DNA of 48,089 nt from Nitrospiria bacterium (GCA_046756865.1 JBHHXE010000003.1:1-48089), one strand, 5' to 3'; numbered from the stretch's first letter, positions 41,434 to 46,456 are shown. The notes: a model not told the origin generated them from the letters alone. Program-made: numbers and translations.

Positions 41434-41592
41434 GGAACCCCTGATTAAGTCTGGGTTGAATTTTTCAGGAGATAAAATGTTTCGATTCAAGGCGCAAATC
41501 GCAGAGAATAGCCCGCTATTTTCAAGATTTGCAACGTGGAAACGGGACATGATTGCCCTGAAAAAACAATGCATGACTTATTCAGAGCTTCC
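41434..41592 (-). mobile_element. 159-bp MITE, inverted copy
   Basis: Reverse complement of 5731-5889 with two visible substitutions; flanks TTGA / TTAA. Confidence 0.9.
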
Positions 41593-41616
41593 TTAAACCA
41601 TTGTGGTGCTGATAAG

Positions 41617-42030
41617 ATGCTTACAAGGTTTTTCTTCGTTCTCGGTTTTGTGATTTATCTCACTGGAGTATGCCCTCCCGTCGAGGCAGGCATGTTTTCT
41701 CCAGGGCAGGCTCTGCTCGTTTCGGAAGACGAGAAATCGGGAGAGTGGCTTGACCTTAATGGGCAGAATAAAGCTTGGTGGATGAATCAGATCGCAATCT
41801 GGAAGGAAAAAAGAGAAAAGGCGCTCAGCGCTTTACACGAGGCGGAAGAGGCTTTTAAAAGAACCCGGTTTAAAAATTATTCCACAGCGCAAAAACGGAT
41901 AGAAAGAAAACAACTCCGGGAAGAGATTCAGGCGCATCGCGAGAAGCTTCAAACGGCTGAAATGATGCTCCATACAACACTGCCGGAAAATGGACGAAGG
42001 GCAGGCGTTCCCTCCGGCTGGTTTCGCTAG
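41617..42030 (+). CDS. Hypothetical secreted coiled-coil protein
   Basis: Start re-set outside the MITE (MLTRFFF); signal peptide VEA|; WW...W coiled coil, C-terminal RRAGVPSGWFR. Confidence 0.7.
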   Translation: MLTRFFFVLGFVIYLTGVCPPVEAGMFSPGQALLVSEDEKSGEWLDLNGQNKAWWMNQIAIWKEKREKALSALHEAEEAFKRTRFKNYSTAQKRIERKQLREEIQAHREKLQTAEMMLHTTLPENGRRAGVPSGWFR

Positions 42031-42057: not shown

Positions 42058-42396
42058 ATGATGGGTCGTTTTGCTTTGATGTTCTTTGTTCTCCTCTTTA
42101 CAGTACAGCATTCGGTGATATGCTGGGGCGGGTCTTCGTCTCAGTTCTCCGGAGAGTCTTCAAATTTTATCGGAAGTCATCACGCGGATGCCAACGGAAA
42201 TCACATTGATTCAGCGTTCTTGGAAACCAACTGTACACAGCCTTGCCACCTTTCCTCAATGAAGACAACCCGTTTTGTATTCAGTACATCCCACCATCCG
42301 GAAGTAAGCAATGCCTTTCAAGAGTCCTCCCTACCAAAAGGGATCATTAGTCCCATTTTTCACCCCCCACGCTTCGTATCATTCCCCGCTATTTAA
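42058..42396 (+). CDS. Small exported ORF with CxxxC and C-terminal HPP motif (CutF/CruR/DUF2946-like leader peptide candidate)
   Basis: Hydrophobic N-terminus, His pairs, CTQPCH, SPIFHPPR near the C-terminus; directly upstream of cytochrome genes. Confidence 0.6.
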   Translation: MMGRFALMFFVLLFTVQHSVICWGGSSSQFSGESSNFIGSHHADANGNHIDSAFLETNCTQPCHLSSMKTTRFVFSTSHHPEVSNAFQESSLPKGIISPIFHPPRFVSFPAI

Positions 42397-42443
42397 GTAT
42401 AGAGGGTCCATTCGGGCCTTATGTTCTTTTCCGGTAAATTCAT

Positions 42444-42482
42444 CTTTTCCCAAATGATTGGTTTTCCCCTTGTTGGGAAAAG
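42444..42482 (+). promoter_or_regulatory. Stem-loop abutting the cytochrome SD
   Basis: CTTTTCCCAA (42444-42453) / TTGGGAAAAG (42473-42482); SD GGGAGG at 42487-42492. Confidence 0.5.
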
Positions 42483-42499
42483 GCTCGGGAGGAAATCTA

Positions 42500-43852
42500 A
42501 TGAATGCTCAGTTTATCCCTAAGGTGTCCTGTGCGATATTTATTTTTATCCATATTATTTTTGCATCGAATGATGCCTTTGCCCTGGAGAAGATAACTGA
42601 TGATGCTGATTCTGGAAAGATTCTGGTCGAGAAGATCGGTTGCCTGAATTGCCATACCATTGACGGAAAGGGGGGAGAAGTCGCCCCGGATCTCAGCCAT
42701 GCCCATGAACGCCTCCAGGAGGAATGGTTGGTCCGCTTCCTTAAAAAGCCTTACGTTATTCGCCCTCTCGGTTATATCCCGTACAGCGGTGTCCAGATGC
42801 CGAATCTACGTCTTACGGATGAAGAAGCGGAAAAGATAGCGCATTACCTTTCTACGCTTAAAAAAGTAGAAATTGAAAGACGTGCGGAGCTGACAAGCCG
42901 TCTCAATAATCCTGAGAACTTGAAAGGGGATATCGAAAAAGGAAGAAGGTTGTTTGCGAGGCTCCCCTGTTTAAACTGTCACACGATCACCGGAGGAAAA
43001 AGAAGGCTGATCGGGCCGGATCTCTCCGATATTGGAACTCGTCTCCAGCCTGAATTCCTCTACCTCTGGATCGAAAATCCACAGGCCTTTGAGCCGCTTA
43101 CCCTCATGCCGAATCTTGGGCTTAAAGAGAAGTCCCTCTTCCTGATAACGCGATATTTGATGTCTTTGCGAAGTGACCTTCCTCCAGTTCCAGGTGAAAC
43201 ACCGGCTGGGCGGCTCCCCTTCGGGCCGGTACGCGTCGCCAGAGCCGAGCGGCTCTTTCGAGATCTTTGTATTCGCTGTCATACTCTGGATGGTCGGGGA
43301 GGTCAGACAGGTCCTGATCTGAGCTATGAAGGGGATAAGGTCAGGCGGCGATGGCTCTTTCAATTTCTCAAAAATCCTTACCGTATTCGTCCCCTCGGTT
43401 TTGCTCAGAATCCCATTGCGCGGATGCCGAAGCTCAGGTTAGATGATGATGAGTTAATTACGATGACCGAGTTTATTTCCACGCTCAAGAAAAGAAGGAA
43501 CCTGAACCTCCCCATGGCAAGCGGCATGATGATGTCCAAAGAGATGAAATCTGAGAAGAGCCGGGAGAAAATGATTGAAATGGGTAAGATGGTGATCAAT
43601 ATAAAAGGCTGTACCGGTTGTCATCGTATCGGCAAGCTTTCTCTTCAGCGCGTGACGATTGGTCCGGACCTGACCCATGTCGGGGACCGTCTGAAAGAGG
43701 GATGGATTTATTCTTGGATTAAAGACCCCCAGAAGTACCGCCCGGAGACCCTCATGCCGAATATGGGGCTCAGTGAGATACAGGCACGCTCTATTGCGGC
43801 CTATTTGTCAGAACAGAAGCAGATGAAAGAAGGAGGACCTCGTGAACCGTAA
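42500..43852 (+). CDS. Periplasmic tetraheme cytochrome c (four tandem class I domains)
   Basis: ATG after GGGAGG; signal peptide AFA|; CLNCH, CLNCH, CIRCH, CTGCH, each followed by PDL...MP (His/Met ligation). Confidence 0.93.
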   Translation: MNAQFIPKVSCAIFIFIHIIFASNDAFALEKITDDADSGKILVEKIGCLNCHTIDGKGGEVAPDLSHAHERLQEEWLVRFLKKPYVIRPLGYIPYSGVQMPNLRLTDEEAEKIAHYLSTLKKVEIERRAELTSRLNNPENLKGDIEKGRRLFARLPCLNCHTITGGKRRLIGPDLSDIGTRLQPEFLYLWIENPQAFEPLTLMPNLGLKEKSLFLITRYLMSLRSDLPPVPGETPAGRLPFGPVRVARAERLFRDLCIRCHTLDGRGGQTGPDLSYEGDKVRRRWLFQFLKNPYRIRPLGFAQNPIARMPKLRLDDDELITMTEFISTLKKRRNLNLPMASGMMMSKEMKSEKSREKMIEMGKMVINIKGCTGCHRIGKLSLQRVTIGPDLTHVGDRLKEGWIYSWIKDPQKYRPETLMPNMGLSEIQARSIAAYLSEQKQMKEGGPREP

Positions 43853-45044
43853 ATTGATCCTGGTATTTCTGATGCTATTGTGTCTAGATCTATTGATCAT
43901 ATTAGTACGACCAAGCCATGCCATTCCTTCATTTGCACGAAAATATAATTACGTCTGCACTGTTTGCCATACGATGCCGCCCAAGCTGAATAAATTCGGC
44001 CTTGCCTTCATGGCCAACGGCTACCAATTGGATGTTCAGACCGAAGCGGAGGATAAGCTCCAGAAGACCGAGGCCTTATCTCTCCTGAAGGATGTTCCTT
44101 TATCCCTCCGCATTATCGCGGATGCGCACTACTCCCTTGCGGAGGGGCAGCCGCGAACCGATCTGCATTTCCCGGAAGGGGTAATCCTTTATTCAGCCGG
44201 GAGCCTTACCGACCAACTGTCTTTCTGGGTGAGCGGGGAGCCTTTTCTTGACGAGTCGCTTGAAGAAATATTTATAAAGTTTCTGGTTAATGATGAGTCT
44301 CCTTATCTGACGGTAAAACTGATCAAGGCGGGGCAGTTTGGCATGAGAGATTATTTTAACTTTGCGAGTGGCCGGAACTTTACGATTGATAACTACGCCA
44401 TTCATCAGGCACGGATAACAGATAAAAATGGAAATGGGAATCCCTTTTCGTTCGGAGCGCCTCAAAGAACGATTGAAGTTCGCGGGATGTTTCCAGGGAT
44501 GACCCTATGGACCATGGCCCTTTCTAACGGTCCCGGAAAAGAGCCAGGGACATTCGATAATAACAGTGAAAAAGATTATTATCTCCGTCTCCACAAGCTT
44601 TTCTTGGGCCGATATGCCATCGGAGGTCTGGGGTATTGGGGGAGCAATGAAATTTCTTCTGGAAGAATGAACCGCTTCCAGCGCTATATCATTGATGTGG
44701 ATCTTGACCATGAAAGGCTTGATCTGACTGCCTCCATCTTGTTCGGCCGTGATAGAGGATTGGAAGGCGTGTCCGGTATTTCGTCATCCTTTGTCGATCA
44801 TTTCGGTTATTTCATTGAGGTAAACTATCACCTTGCCCGTCTCTGGCATGGCCTGGTCCGCTATGACCTTCTTGATTCAGACGACCTCTCTCGGAATACT
44901 TTCCCTGAGCTTTTTGTCCGGACGGTGACCTTGCAACTTAATCACTTTCATCGCCTGAACTTACGGTTCATTTCCGAGGTCGTCATTGATCTTTCTGAAA
45001 AAGAAGGCCATATACTCCGGATTGGAATAGATTTTACCCTGTAG
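43842..45044 (+). CDS. cyc2: Cyc2-like monoheme cytochrome c-porin fusion
   Basis: GTG after AGGAGG; signal SHA|IPSFARKY...CTVCH..PPKLNKFGLAF..NGY; amphipathic beta-strands to C-terminal GIDFTL. Confidence 0.8.
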   Translation: MNRKLILVFLMLLCLDLLIILVRPSHAIPSFARKYNYVCTVCHTMPPKLNKFGLAFMANGYQLDVQTEAEDKLQKTEALSLLKDVPLSLRIIADAHYSLAEGQPRTDLHFPEGVILYSAGSLTDQLSFWVSGEPFLDESLEEIFIKFLVNDESPYLTVKLIKAGQFGMRDYFNFASGRNFTIDNYAIHQARITDKNGNGNPFSFGAPQRTIEVRGMFPGMTLWTMALSNGPGKEPGTFDNNSEKDYYLRLHKLFLGRYAIGGLGYWGSNEISSGRMNRFQRYIIDVDLDHERLDLTASILFGRDRGLEGVSGISSSFVDHFGYFIEVNYHLARLWHGLVRYDLLDSDDLSRNTFPELFVRTVTLQLNHFHRLNLRFISEVVIDLSEKEGHILRIGIDFTL

Positions 45045-45052
45045 AAAACTTT

Positions 45053-46456
45053 TTACTTCGGCGAAAGCGTGGGGGTGCTGTCCGGAAGGGGAGCGGCTTG
45101 ACTATCGTTGTTGAGACTAATTACGCGATTGCGGCCGGCTCTTTTTGCCTGGTAGAGCGCTCTGTCCGCCCTCTCCAAAAGTTCTCCTAAATCAGGAAGA
45201 GGTCCCTTGTTCCAGCGAAAGGTGCTTACTCCGAAGCTGCAGGTCAGGGGGATCTCTTTTGAAGAAAATTTCTTTTCTGTGGCGACCACTCGCAGCCGTT
45301 CGGCAAAGGCGACAGAGAAATCCTCATCTGTTTCAGACATCAGGATGAGAAACTCTTCACCTCCGAAACGGGCGAAGGTATCGTATGGGCGAATGATCGA
45401 TCCGAAAAGTTTTGACAGATCCTGTAGTACCTGATCGCCGGTTACATGTCCATATTTGTCATTGATGTCCTTGAAGTGGTCGATGTCGAGCAGGATGAGC
45501 GACAAGGGGTGCTGCAGTCGGGAAGCCCGCTCCATCTCGGTCCTCAAGACCTGGTCAAGGTAGCGGCGGTTGTACAGTCCTGTCAGAGAATCCCGGATGG
45601 AGAGATTTTTGATTTCCTGAAATGCCTGTTGCTTCTGAATGTTAATGACGGCCTGCGTCCCCAGTGCCCTGAGGGTCTCCACAATTGAGGGCTCGAAGGC
45701 CCGAGGTCTGAAATCGTCGCCGTAAAGAATCCCGACCGGGCCTTTTTCAGAAATAAGAGGAATCGCGATGAGGGATCGAACCCCTTCTTTTAAAATGACG
45801 GGGTTATTAAAGGCAGGAAAATCATTAATATCCGGGACAAGCAAGGGTTTTTTTTGTGACAGGATCTGCTCAGTCAATCCCCCGGGTCGGACAGGATAGA
45901 CCGCATTTTTATAAAATTCTGAGGAAAATCCCTTTGCGGATACCAGATAAAGCTCTTGTTTTTCTTTATTGAACATGGAGAGAGAGCCGGCCGGCATACC
46001 CGTCATCTGAAGCATACCCGAGACAATGGCCTCGAAAATCTGGTCATCGGTCACGGAACGTGTAAGCAGGAGGTTTATTTCTGAAAGGATTCGATGTTCC
46101 CGGAGCCGGCGATTTAGCTGTTCTTCTTTGTCCTCCAACTCCCGAATGGCATTCCAGAGAAGTTGAGTTGCCTGTCCTGAGATCACACTGAAAGGTCGGT
46201 CATTAACCTCTGAAAGCCTTTTCTCAAAGCTTGGATCACCAGTCAGATCGAAGACCAGATCGACGTCCAGCCCCTGCAGTACCTTCAGTGGTTCCTCTGT
46301 GAAGATGGGTAAGCCTTCCTTTTTGGCGAGGGGAATAGCAAGGGCTTCCGGGTTTTGATCGGCTACCCCGACGACTTGAACCCATGTGGACCGCAATAAA
46401 CGGTTTAGGACAACCAGTCCGCCTTTACCCGCACCTATGACCAGTACTTTAGACAT
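45053..46456 (-). CDS. Diguanylate cyclase with N-terminal Rossmann-like and GAF domains
   Basis: VLVIGAGKGG...VVGVAD; GAF; DSLTGLYNRR, RFGGEEF, RxxD (RPYD). Confidence 0.92.
   Translation of the reverse strand: MSKVLVIGAGKGGLVVLNRLLRSTWVQVVGVADQNPEALAIPLAKKEGLPIFTEEPLKVLQGLDVDLVFDLTGDPSFEKRLSEVNDRPFSVISGQATQLLWNAIRELEDKEEQLNRRLREHRILSEINLLLTRSVTDDQIFEAIVSGMLQMTGMPAGSLSMFNKEKQELYLVSAKGFSSEFYKNAVYPVRPGGLTEQILSQKKPLLVPDINDFPAFNNPVILKEGVRSLIAIPLISEKGPVGILYGDDFRPRAFEPSIVETLRALGTQAVINIQKQQAFQEIKNLSIRDSLTGLYNRRYLDQVLRTEMERASRLQHPLSLILLDIDHFKDINDKYGHVTGDQVLQDLSKLFGSIIRPYDTFARFGGEEFLILMSETDEDFSVAFAERLRVVATEKKFSSKEIPLTCSFGVSTFRWNKGPLPDLGELLERADRALYQAKRAGRNRVISLNNDSQAAPLPDSTPTLSPK

Follow-up and report, generated by a model that had tools for sequence, protein, structure and literature searches.

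The 48,089-nucleotide (nt) stretch of DNA considered here, called the window below, comes from a Nitrospiria bacterium (GCA_046756865.1 JBHHXE010000003.1:1-48089). Its positions 42,058 to 45,044 hold, on the plus strand, a small open reading frame (ORF) of 112 codons, followed by the genes of a tetraheme cytochrome c and of a Cyc2-type cytochrome-porin. The gene cyc2 is a marker for microbial iron oxidation, and we know of no description of how it is regulated. We will argue that the small ORF is, on balance, probably a cis-acting leader that is exported co-translationally and senses metal, that it belongs to the functional class of CutF and CruR, and that it represents an uncurated family, called the FHPP family here. 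What we infer from sequence comparison is the export, the metal binding, the stalling, the action in cis, the route of coupling and the metal sensed. The conservation of the ORF, of a few of its residues and of their spacing is observed directly, and is described first.

Conservation of the Small ORF

The window's own genome is denoted G000. G001 and G002 are from the same genus, G003 is from a neighbouring genus, and G004 and G007 are from the same taxonomic family. In a protein search of 41 related genomes, the frame of the small ORF (42058..42396, plus strand) is found open in G001 and G002, at 51-52% identity, and relatives with 30-37% identity are recovered in G003, G004 and G007. With a profile built on seven sequences, it is found in 7 of the 401 genomes of the class, all of them in one taxonomic family, and it is open and conserved at the protein level in six of the 14 other genomes of its own taxonomic family. 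Searching 1.84 billion representative proteins with HMMER yields nine matches at E<=0.001. Seven of these are clear members (112-138 amino acids, aa), and one is a distant relative of 152 aa that ends in YHPPKYLS. The ninth, P0011 (384 aa), is a repeat protein matching the Cys motif alone and was excluded from all alignments, and another sequence, L008 (E 0.01), was removed after the first alignment, being devoid of the motifs. Two other searches for homologous proteins yielded only 6 and 3 sequences, none of them with a name. Neither Pfam nor NCBIfam has a curated family for the ORF.

Members from other phyla were obtained by running a degenerate DNA pattern, C-x-x-P-C-H + 36 codons + F-H-P-P, on species-representative genomes. 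It is important to note that this pattern imposes the motifs and their spacing, while it leaves free the size of the ORF, the hydrophobic N-terminus and the tail of 3 aa. Twenty loci were met, of which two are known relatives and three are new small ORFs; the other 15 were discarded as chance, since their frames were interrupted by stops, were long and unrelated, or lacked the short tail. The new ORFs are one of 111 aa in a metagenome-assembled genome (MAG) of Candidatus Calescibacterium (CNCPCH ... DIFHPPPFS-stop) and an identical ORF of 110 aa in two Bacteroidota MAGs (CTCPCH ... DIFHPPVLI-stop). With a stricter pattern run on metagenome contigs, the Bacteroidota ORF was met three more times. 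The family amounts to about 15 sequences in all.

All four FHPP codons vary synonymously among seven loci, which indicates that selection acts on the peptide and not on the RNA. Judged from these alignments, the 112-aa ORF is a real, conserved gene under selection at the protein level. The pattern of motifs likewise exceeds chance on this evidence, namely that the frame is kept open, that the FHPP codons vary synonymously, and that the same architecture appears in other phyla.

Conserved Residues and Geometry

Nine residues are invariant in the 12 close members, namely Q17, C22, C59, C63, H64, F101, H102, P103 and P104, in an alignment with a mean column identity of only 38%. Over all 15 members, six residues are invariant: C59, C63 and H64 (for two of the 15, the search pattern itself required this motif), and H102, P103 and P104. 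Position 101 is F in 14 of them and Y in one, and Q17 and C22 are kept in at least 90%. H64 and F101 are separated by 36 aa in 12 of the 15 members, by 35 in two and by 37 in one (for the two found by pattern, the value of 36 was fixed in advance). After the Pro-Pro there are 3 aa in ten members, 4 in one, and 8-10 in the four members of the window's genus.

The individual elements agree well with the initial annotation of the locus. The N-terminus (42058..42132) consists of the n-region MMGR, a hydrophobic core of 12 residues and a closing Q17-H18-x3-C22; in the alignment, the relatives carry A-x-A after the hydrophobic N-terminus/Cys region. On the basis of charge, hydrophobic core and a modelled helix, it is predicted to be of the export type, as that annotation had proposed. 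The candidate metal-binding motif C59-T-Q-P-C63-H64 (CTQPCH, residues 59-64, 42232..42249) is where it had been described, and it is conserved. So is the candidate arrest motif F101-H102-P103-P104 (42358..42369), which ends 8 aa before the stop codon at 42394-42396, and the IFHPPR hexapeptide does lie seven codons before that stop, counted between R105 and the stop. The pairs of His noted earlier are there in the sequence as well (HH at 40-41 and 79-80), but they are not conserved in the relatives.

With the family alignment as input, AlphaFold2 models residues 2-19 confidently as a helix and shows no secondary structure elsewhere. The mid-protein has a predicted local distance difference test (pLDDT) value of 45-62 and the predicted template modelling score (pTM) is 0.21, numbers whose weight is limited by the shallow alignment. 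Beyond the signal helix, the small protein is hence predicted by the model to be unstructured. The only constrained parts are the end of the signal peptide, the Cys/His motif, the four-residue motif near the stop, and the distance of 36 aa between the last two.

Genomic Contexts

Similar small ORFs, which the initial annotation had suggested looking for, precede the homologous cytochrome/cyc2 loci of G001, G002 and G003, where the order is that of G000: the small ORF, a spacer of 79-114 nt, the tetraheme cytochrome c gene and then the Cyc2-type gene. This context is limited to the one genus and the one neighbouring genus. In G004 and in a further genome, G013, the small ORF heads genes for OEP, HlyD_D23 (CusB-type) and ACR_tran, and the ORF of the Calescibacterium MAG (L032) likewise heads OEP, HlyD_D23 and ACR_tran. 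On the Bacteroidota contigs (L043, L044), it is followed by an ACR_tran-OEP fusion, HlyD_D23 and a P-type ATPase with an HMA domain. In G007 the contig ends, and the spacer is about 80% identical to that of G013. The family ORF is always found directly upstream of exported metal-handling genes, on the same strand, with spacers of 47-148 nt. Since the contexts outside G000-G003 are efflux operons, the usual place of the family appears to be at the head of an operon for heavy-metal efflux of the resistance-nodulation-division (RND) type.

The spacers of G007 (L005 1233-1448) and G013 (L007 1786-1978) have features of their own. They share a hairpin of 10-11 base pairs (bp) with a U-rich and an A-rich arm and one apparently compensatory change. 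They also share two hexamers, TTGAC/TTGAG ... TAAACT/TAAGAT, 20 nt apart, a distance that we take to be of the MerR type; a MerR-family gene is near in G007. Given these hexamers, a separate promoter may serve the efflux operon in the two genomes.

Behind the FHPP-headed RND operon of G013 come, on that same strand (L022 13048-15849), a small ORF of a second family, a Cyc2-like gene of 464 aa and a diheme cytochrome c gene, such that modules for metal efflux and Cyc2 are physically adjacent. The members of this second family, which is unrelated to the first, are small exported ORFs of 113-133 aa (L060, L062, L063, L064, L065, L068 and L022, from G009, G014, G007, G006, G005, G001 and G013). 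Their signal peptide ends in S-L-C and is followed by C-x4-C-x-T-L-x-S-K, by a hydrophobic stretch and by the tail (PP)-x-L-Y-x-L-H-A-x-x-L-I-stop. The family has no match in Pfam, and hhalign relates it to the FHPP family with a probability of 0.5%. In 7 of the 13 loci examined, it lies 21-152 nt before a widespread Cyc2 paralogue of about 470 aa; small ORFs with Cys motifs before cyc2 therefore seem to be recurrent in the lineage.

Similarity to DUF6660

A protein-language-model atlas named two look-alikes of the small ORF, DUF6660 and CzcI. The former was collected with its hidden Markov model (HMM; PF20365), which matched 23 of 151 Bacteroidota genomes. The 14 loci that we analysed (L046-L059) encode proteins of about 105 aa, one of them of 69 aa. 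Each contains a C-S-P-F-C-x-C-x-C-C cluster besides a signal peptide that ends in Cys. In 13 of them the C-terminus is [I/F]-W-[Q/E/R/H]-P-P plus 2-4 aa (I-W-Q-P-P-K-I-S-like), and in the remaining one it is LLQPP. A gene with an RND-type N-terminus is located 42-253 nt downstream in all 14 cases.

Aligned by hhalign, the FHPP and DUF6660 families give a probability of 88.5% (E 2.8e-6) over 101 columns, with all three common features in register, i.e. the signal peptide ending in Cys, the central Cys motif, and an aromatic-polar-P-P motif 2-4 aa before the stop. The controls stay far below: 0.3% for reversed DUF6660, 5.5% for DUF2946-like ORFs, and 0.5% for the unrelated family of small exported Cys-ORFs described above. 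When the signal peptides are removed, the similarity to DUF6660 is confined to the last 22 columns, with a score of 24.3 compared to a maximum of 16.4 in 20 column shuffles. The two families differ in that the FHPP members do not reach the Pfam gathering score, in the extended Cys cluster of DUF6660, and in its spacing of 43-47 aa. Scanned directly, the DUF6660 HMM gives no hit over the cut-off in the 15 genomes of the taxonomic family, with weak matches elsewhere, and none in the three genomes with distant members. Taken together, the profile comparison suggests that the FHPP family is remotely similar to DUF6660.

No function seems to have been published for DUF6660 (PF20365), which none of the papers in the library searched mentions. 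In its own right, DUF6660 looks like an unrecognised family of leaders or arrest peptides.

Nascent-Chain Sensor or Mature Protein

The ribosome exit tunnel holds about 30-40 residues. With a gap of 36 aa, the Cys/His motif would therefore be located at the tunnel mouth or at the junction of ribosome and translocon when FHPP is at the peptidyl-transferase centre. In the mechanism that we propose, the ribosome would decode FHPP near the end of the ORF while the C-x3-C-H motif, 36-40 residues back, is at the tunnel mouth or translocon. In concert with the Q-H-x3-C that closes the signal peptide, this motif would report a thiophilic or borderline metal, and the binding of the metal would alter the dwell of the ribosome at FHPP or at the stop codon. 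The dwell time, in turn, would set the expression of the downstream genes, which are cytochrome c and Cyc2 here and RND efflux pumps in the relatives. The leader type common to the efflux pumps and Cyc2 suggests that the sensed metal is a periplasmic divalent or thiophilic one. It is speculation that the Cyc2 operon is induced by its substrate, Fe(II) or Mn(II); Mn(II) has been proposed as a substrate of Cyc2 in Manganitrophaceae (PMC9040806).

The strongest alternative, which we consider possible while giving it clearly less credence, is that the product acts in trans as a mature small protein, either periplasmic or tethered to the membrane. It could then be a metal-binding accessory or a sensor in the sense of CzcI, or a chaperone or gatekeeper of the pump or the cytochrome, and its C-terminus would be a contact rather than an arrest signal. 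The Cys/His motifs and the export signal would suit a periplasmic metal binder, and the possible independent promoter elements in the G007/G013 spacer would also fit. There is a precedent too, in that the survey of CutF-like proteins discusses CzcI, encoded before czcCBA, as a regulator that senses metal and has no Pro motif (PMC9973294).

We have compared the family with 11 CzcI ORFs (L072-L083 less L075); a search of 401 Pseudomonadota genomes had met such ORFs in 10 of them (E<=1e-6). The hhalign probability is 15% (E 0.0017) over 68 columns covering the N-terminal two thirds, and in this alignment the Q of the signal peptide, the Cys behind it and D-C-x-x-(x)-C-H fall on matching positions. 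The likeness to CzcI of the Cupriavidus type (czcICBA) consists of the place before RND efflux genes, the conserved Q with a Cys after it, D-C-x-x-C-H resembling D-C-x-x-P-C-H, and a short conserved motif 3-4 aa before the stop (RPQW in CzcI). CzcI differs, however, in having no Pro-Pro and in its His-rich HxGHHxH block, which the FHPP family lacks. Membership in CzcI (NF045614) was rejected, as its HMM matches one of the 15 members, at E 0.59, and neither the HxGHHxH block nor RPQW is present. As for the CzcI ORFs themselves (L072-L083, Pseudomonadota), they combine R-P-Q-W 3-4 aa before the stop with D-C-x-x-C-H and the His-rich block, that is, they have a fixed C-terminal motif without Pro-Pro.

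What speaks against a mature protein, apart from the poor match to the CzcI HMM, is that the polypeptide is predicted to be unstructured and that its conservation is limited to short motifs. The fixed distance between motif and stop and the Cys spacing of 35-37 aa would hardly be expected of a mature protein that is disordered, and beyond the signal peptide only the last 22 residues are common to DUF6660. The geometry, the lack of predicted structure and the C-terminal segment in common with DUF6660 suggest instead a nascent-chain sensor, for which they are as expected, whereas they would be hard to account for in a mature folded protein.

Spacer and Coupling Route

We now consider how a leader of this kind could act on the genes behind it. 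The spacer between the small ORF and the ATG of the cytochrome c gene (42500) is 103 nt long. The initial annotation had described a structured spacer of about 100 nt with a 10-bp stem next to the cytochrome gene's Shine-Dalgarno (SD) sequence. The length is right and the stem exists; it is in fact a stem-loop of 11 bp (42443..42483, pairing 42443-42453 with 42473-42483), with a local energy of -14.6 kcal/mol, and ends 3 nt before the SD sequence GGGAGG (42487..42492), which is conserved in G001 and G002. The general statement that the spacer is structured is, on the other hand, not supported by fold energy or by covariation. The region 42340-42510 is no more stable than its shuffled versions (z = -0.84, with 40 of 200 shuffles at least as stable), and the minimum free energy (MFE) of the spacer, -37.1, is to be compared with -35.7 +/- 4.0 for shuffled spacers.

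A second hairpin in the spacer is terminator-like (42403..42430). It has a 7-bp stem (42403-42409/42414-42420; -9.8 kcal/mol) followed by a T-rich run, and begins 7 nt after the stop codon. A comparable one is present in G001, and in G002 it is deleted. Six terminator-like sites occur in the region, compared to 6.9 in shuffles. Over the three genomes, no covariation was found in either this hairpin or the 11-bp stem.

The 3' half of the small ORF (42190..42399) is C-rich and G-poor, a composition similar to that of a Rho utilization (rut) site. In 60-nt windows of this region, the C/G ratio is 1.6-3.0, whereas the means of the whole window are 0.239 for C and 0.265 for G, and all nine family loci show a ratio of 1.4-2.6 in this half of their ORF. 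The gene rho is encoded in the genome. Given the long spacers, the composition of the 3' half and the presence of rho, attenuation of the type described for CruR would fit somewhat better than an unmasking of the SD sequence as in CutF, as far as sequence can tell. In the mechanism proposed above, the ribosome would thus most likely control the read-through of transcription across the 103-nt spacer, via access of Rho to the C-rich, G-poor 3' half and/or via the hairpin 7 nt after the stop, and direct melting of the SD-adjacent stem would be less likely.

The latter option is the one put forward in the initial annotation, namely that the stem adjoining the SD is unfolded when a ribosome stalls at HPP in the course of export, whereby translation of cytochrome c is turned on. 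It is a sub-variant of the same leader class, counted within our preferred explanation, and we regard it as rather improbable. CutF works in this way (bioRxiv 10.1101/2025.02.05.636593; PMC9973294), the stem here ends just before the SD, and it is largely kept in G002, with 84.8% of the cells paired over the three members of the genus. Against this, the stem does not include the SD and starts 47 nt after the stop and 74 nt after the HPP codons (the annotation had itself cautioned that this distance is about 75 nt), which puts it beyond the reach of the stalled ribosome. The SD accessibility falls within that of shuffled spacers in 7 of 7 loci (0.25-0.94 of the shuffles being at least as paired), and masking the footprint of the stalled ribosome shifts it inconsistently, from 0.44 to 0.47, from 0.36 to 0.32 and from 0.58 to 0.51. 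There are no compensatory pairs in the stem, and its 3' arm has diverged in G001. In addition, the unfolding of stem-loops by stalling is argued to be limited to short spacers (PMC9973294). We have also considered the Pro codons (CCN CCN) as an anti-SD element pairing with the downstream SD, since some MFE structures do pair them. This idea was dropped because masking the stall site opened the SD inconsistently and because such complementarity is trivial.

Weighing of the Evidence

Several points weigh against a metal-sensing leader of the kind that we favour. The RNA side is weak, as seen from the fold energy (z -0.84), an SD accessibility like that of shuffles, the zero compensatory pairs, and the hairpin that is gone in G002. 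The excess of C over G may simply follow from the content of Pro, His, Ser and Thr. FHPP is not a validated arrest motif, and with F at position 1 and H at position 2 it falls outside the RAPP-like class. Elongation factor P (EF-P), which normally relieves pauses at Pro-Pro, is encoded in the genome. There is no detectable homology to DUF2946, CruR or CutF. The family is tiny, with about 15 members, and two of these come from a pattern fixing motifs and spacing. In the window's genus, the small ORF is not the first on its strand, as another ORF ends 27 nt before it. Finally, the -35/-10-like hexamers that we read in the G007/G013 spacer are conserved.

The least probable explanation, which we hold to be very unlikely, is a lineage-specific hypothetical protein without regulatory or metal role, its motifs and neighbourhoods being coincidental or inherited by descent: the very small size of the family (nine matches at E<=0.001 among the 1.84 billion representatives) and the lack of a curated family would agree with it, but the same motifs, spacing and tail recur in the Calescibacterium and Bacteroidota MAGs before the same kind of operon, and the invariant residues are encoded by varying codons.

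Downstream and Neighbouring Genes

The downstream module is indeed made up of a cytochrome and Cyc2, as first annotated. The gene at 42500..43852 (plus strand) encodes a tetraheme class-I cytochrome c of 450 aa with a signal peptide and four CXXCH motifs, and is matched in four stretches both by Pfam Cytochrom_C (1.1e-33) and by the NCBIfam SoxX-like family. Its start is assigned to ATG 42500 and not to TTG 42458 because of the alignment with G001 and G002. In G001 (L018 7807-9281), the orthologous gene is split into two overlapping frames of 162 and 373 aa, which is either a frameshift or an assembly error.

The Cyc2-type gene (43842..45044, plus strand) overlaps the stop of the cytochrome c gene by 11 nt at its start. 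The product, a predicted fused monoheme cytochrome-porin of 400 aa, has a signal peptide and a single CXXCH, located within AIPSFARKY-NYV-CTVCH-TMP-PKL; it reads ...SHAIPSFARKYNYVCTVCHTMPPKL... at this place. Keffer et al. describe AXPXFAR[Q/K][T/Y] before CXXCH and PXL after it as a signature unique to Cyc2 (PMC8406198). The elements AIPSFARKY, CTVCH and PKL match this signature, and the protein is therefore, at the level of motifs, a Cyc2-type cytochrome-porin. In Cyc2, the cytochrome is fused to a porin with a beta-barrel of 16 strands. For this part of the product, the neighbours in the protein-language-model atlas, which are unnamed clusters, an 'outer membrane cytochrome c family protein' and porins, are taken as a lead only. 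Full-length orthologues of this Cyc2 (66-84% identity) occur only in G001-G003, while Cyc2-like genes in general are found in 29 of the 37 genomes of the order.

Upstream of the small ORF, at a distance of 27 nt and on the same strand, there is an ORF of 164 aa (41536..42030, plus strand). It appears coiled-coil-like and exported, probably with a later start around M28, and belongs to no Pfam or NCBIfam family. Only G001 and G002 keep this ORF in synteny, and what lies upstream in G003 is an unrelated ORF (BLASTP E=17); the 164-aa ORF is therefore outside the conserved core. On the other side, a GAF-GGDEF diguanylate cyclase gene (window 45053-46456, minus strand) runs towards the Cyc2 gene, the two stops lying 8 nt apart, and this arrangement is also kept in G001. 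Upstream of the leader operon, G002 (L019 5279-6293) has extra genes that are absent from the window, which by sequence reading are an ArsR-like regulator and an AhpD/carboxymuconolactone-decarboxylase-like CxxC protein. G001 (L018 6135-6891) has an insertion there, likewise absent from the window, in which the AhpD-like protein of G002 recurs together with a small Cys-Cys membrane protein, again named by sequence reading.

Implications

If the leader works like CutF or CruR, it would be a self-contained cis element, consisting of an ORF of 339 nt and a spacer of 103 nt, that reports the metal inducing the Cyc2 conduit in an uncultured Nitrospirota lineage. It would also provide a new candidate arrest motif (F/W-H/Q-P-P), common to the uncharacterised DUF6660, and a case where a sensor of the metal-efflux type is re-used for a module of energy metabolism or redox chemistry. 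If, instead, the product is merely a small periplasmic metal-binding protein, it would still be an unannotated family marking metal-responsive operons.

A more far-reaching view, which we offer tentatively and think less probable than the leader function as such, is that the ORFs of the FHPP type and of the WQPP type (DUF6660) form one cross-phylum class of nascent-chain metal sensors. The arrest motif of this class would be aromatic-(H/Q)-P-P about three codons before the stop, distinct from the leaders with RAPP or polyproline. In one Nitrospirota lineage, such a sensor would have moved from efflux operons to the tetraheme cytochrome c/Cyc2 operon, where the periplasmic metal, either the own substrate or a toxic one, would post-transcriptionally switch on the outer-membrane conduit oxidising Fe(II)/Mn(II). 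If true, it would give cyc2 its first described regulator and provide the first case of an extracellular electron-transfer module under the control of an arrest peptide. In the library searched, no paper links Cyc2 with CutF, and among the matches listed for Cyc2, iron oxidation and arrest or leader peptides, none mentions Cyc2. A published counterpart of the module of FHPP leader and Cyc2 was not found either, with the proviso that the supplementary lists of PMC9973294 and PMC9426467 may already include the family or DUF6660.

Comparison with Known Systems

The layout seen in the initial annotation, i.e. export signal, Cys motif and C-terminal Pro-Pro near the stop as in CutF and CruR, is borne out by the alignments, and the invariant residues and their spacing support it. 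The sequence relation that it drew to DUF2946 (PF11162) is not. None of the eight members tested has a match to the Pfam family at E<=10, the hhalign probabilities against four DUF2946-like ORFs of the phylum are 3.9-5.5%, and the motif is FHPP, not RAPP or PPP. The export signal of that family is present, while its CXXC and C-terminal RAPP are not. In a six-frame search of the own genome, the DUF2946 HMM finds only a different ORF, on contig C137 (17.2 bits). This ORF (L014 1492-1821, minus strand) encodes an exported protein of 110 aa with C-K-L-A-C and the end R-A-P-P-F-V-F-stop, i.e. a CruR-like RAPP plus three residues, and is itself a sub-threshold match to DUF2946 (Pfam E 0.0035, 18.5 bits). 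By sequence reading, the genes downstream of it encode an excisionase-type helix-turn-helix protein and an ApbE-like protein, not metal transporters.

With the RAPP-like arrest peptides (SecM, ApdA/ApdP, RQH), the family has in common that they are short, exported upstream ORFs with a conserved C-terminal Pro motif near the stop and little other conservation. The published stalling class is (R/Q/H)-(A/G/D)-(P/G/S)-(P/G), and most proteins with RAPP-like motifs are reported not to stall (PMC10987492). FHPP is outside this consensus, and membership in the RAPP-like (RQH) class was rejected on the motif. A further difference is that these peptides monitor the Sec/YidC machinery and not metals.

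In CutF of Rhodobacter capsulatus (cutFOG), a Sec signal is combined with C-x3-C and PPP at the C-terminus, and the SD of the downstream gene is shielded by a stem-loop that the stalled ribosome opens (bioRxiv 10.1101/2025.02.05.636593; PMC9973294). The rules given by Ozturk et al. 2023 for CutF-like proteins are a length below 150 aa, PP among the 15 C-terminal residues, a signal peptide and a co-directional gene downstream within 1000 nt (PMC9973294). The small ORF conforms to all four, with 112 aa, P103-P104 at 8 aa from the end, a signal-like N-terminus and cytochrome c 103 nt downstream. It resembles CutF in being a small exported ORF with C-x3-C and Pro-Pro in the last 15 residues, placed co-directionally before exported metal-handling genes. 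The same source lists OEP/RND genes as the commonest neighbours of CutF-like proteins and places 40% of the members in Bacteroidota (PMC9973294), and relatives of the window's ORF are indeed found before OEP/RND genes. In contrast to CutF, homology to DUF2946 is not detectable, FHPP stands in place of PPP, the spacer of 103 nt has a stem that does not cover the SD, so that the SD-shielding stem of the CutF mechanism is missing, and the downstream genes encode a tetraheme cytochrome c and Cyc2 rather than a multicopper oxidase.

CruR of Bordetella pertussis (Bp2923, DUF2946) is described with an export signal, present in more than 95% of the members, a CXXC motif and RAPP 3 residues from the end, a distance between Cys and RAPP of 45 aa that is conserved to within 1-2 residues, and a spacer of 162 nt (PMC9426467). 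Copper sensed by the nascent chain relieves the arrest and makes possible a Rho-dependent termination between the upstream ORF and the next gene (PMC9426467). For the window's locus, the excess of C over G and the presence of rho are only indirect signs of such a termination. The FHPP family differs from it in having C-x3-C-H and FHPP in place of CXXC and RAPP, and in the downstream genes, as CruR heads an operon for a TonB-dependent transporter and is always the first in it. The distance between Cys and PP is conserved in both cases, here at 35-37 aa (36 in 12 of the 15 members, two of which were found by pattern), but its value of 36 aa is unlike the 45 aa of CruR. What the two systems share is the export signal, a Cys motif whose distance from x-x-P-P is almost constant within each family, PP located 3 residues from the end in most FHPP members, a long spacer (162 nt in CruR and 47-148 nt in the FHPP family), a C/T-rich ORF region and the predicted lack of structure.

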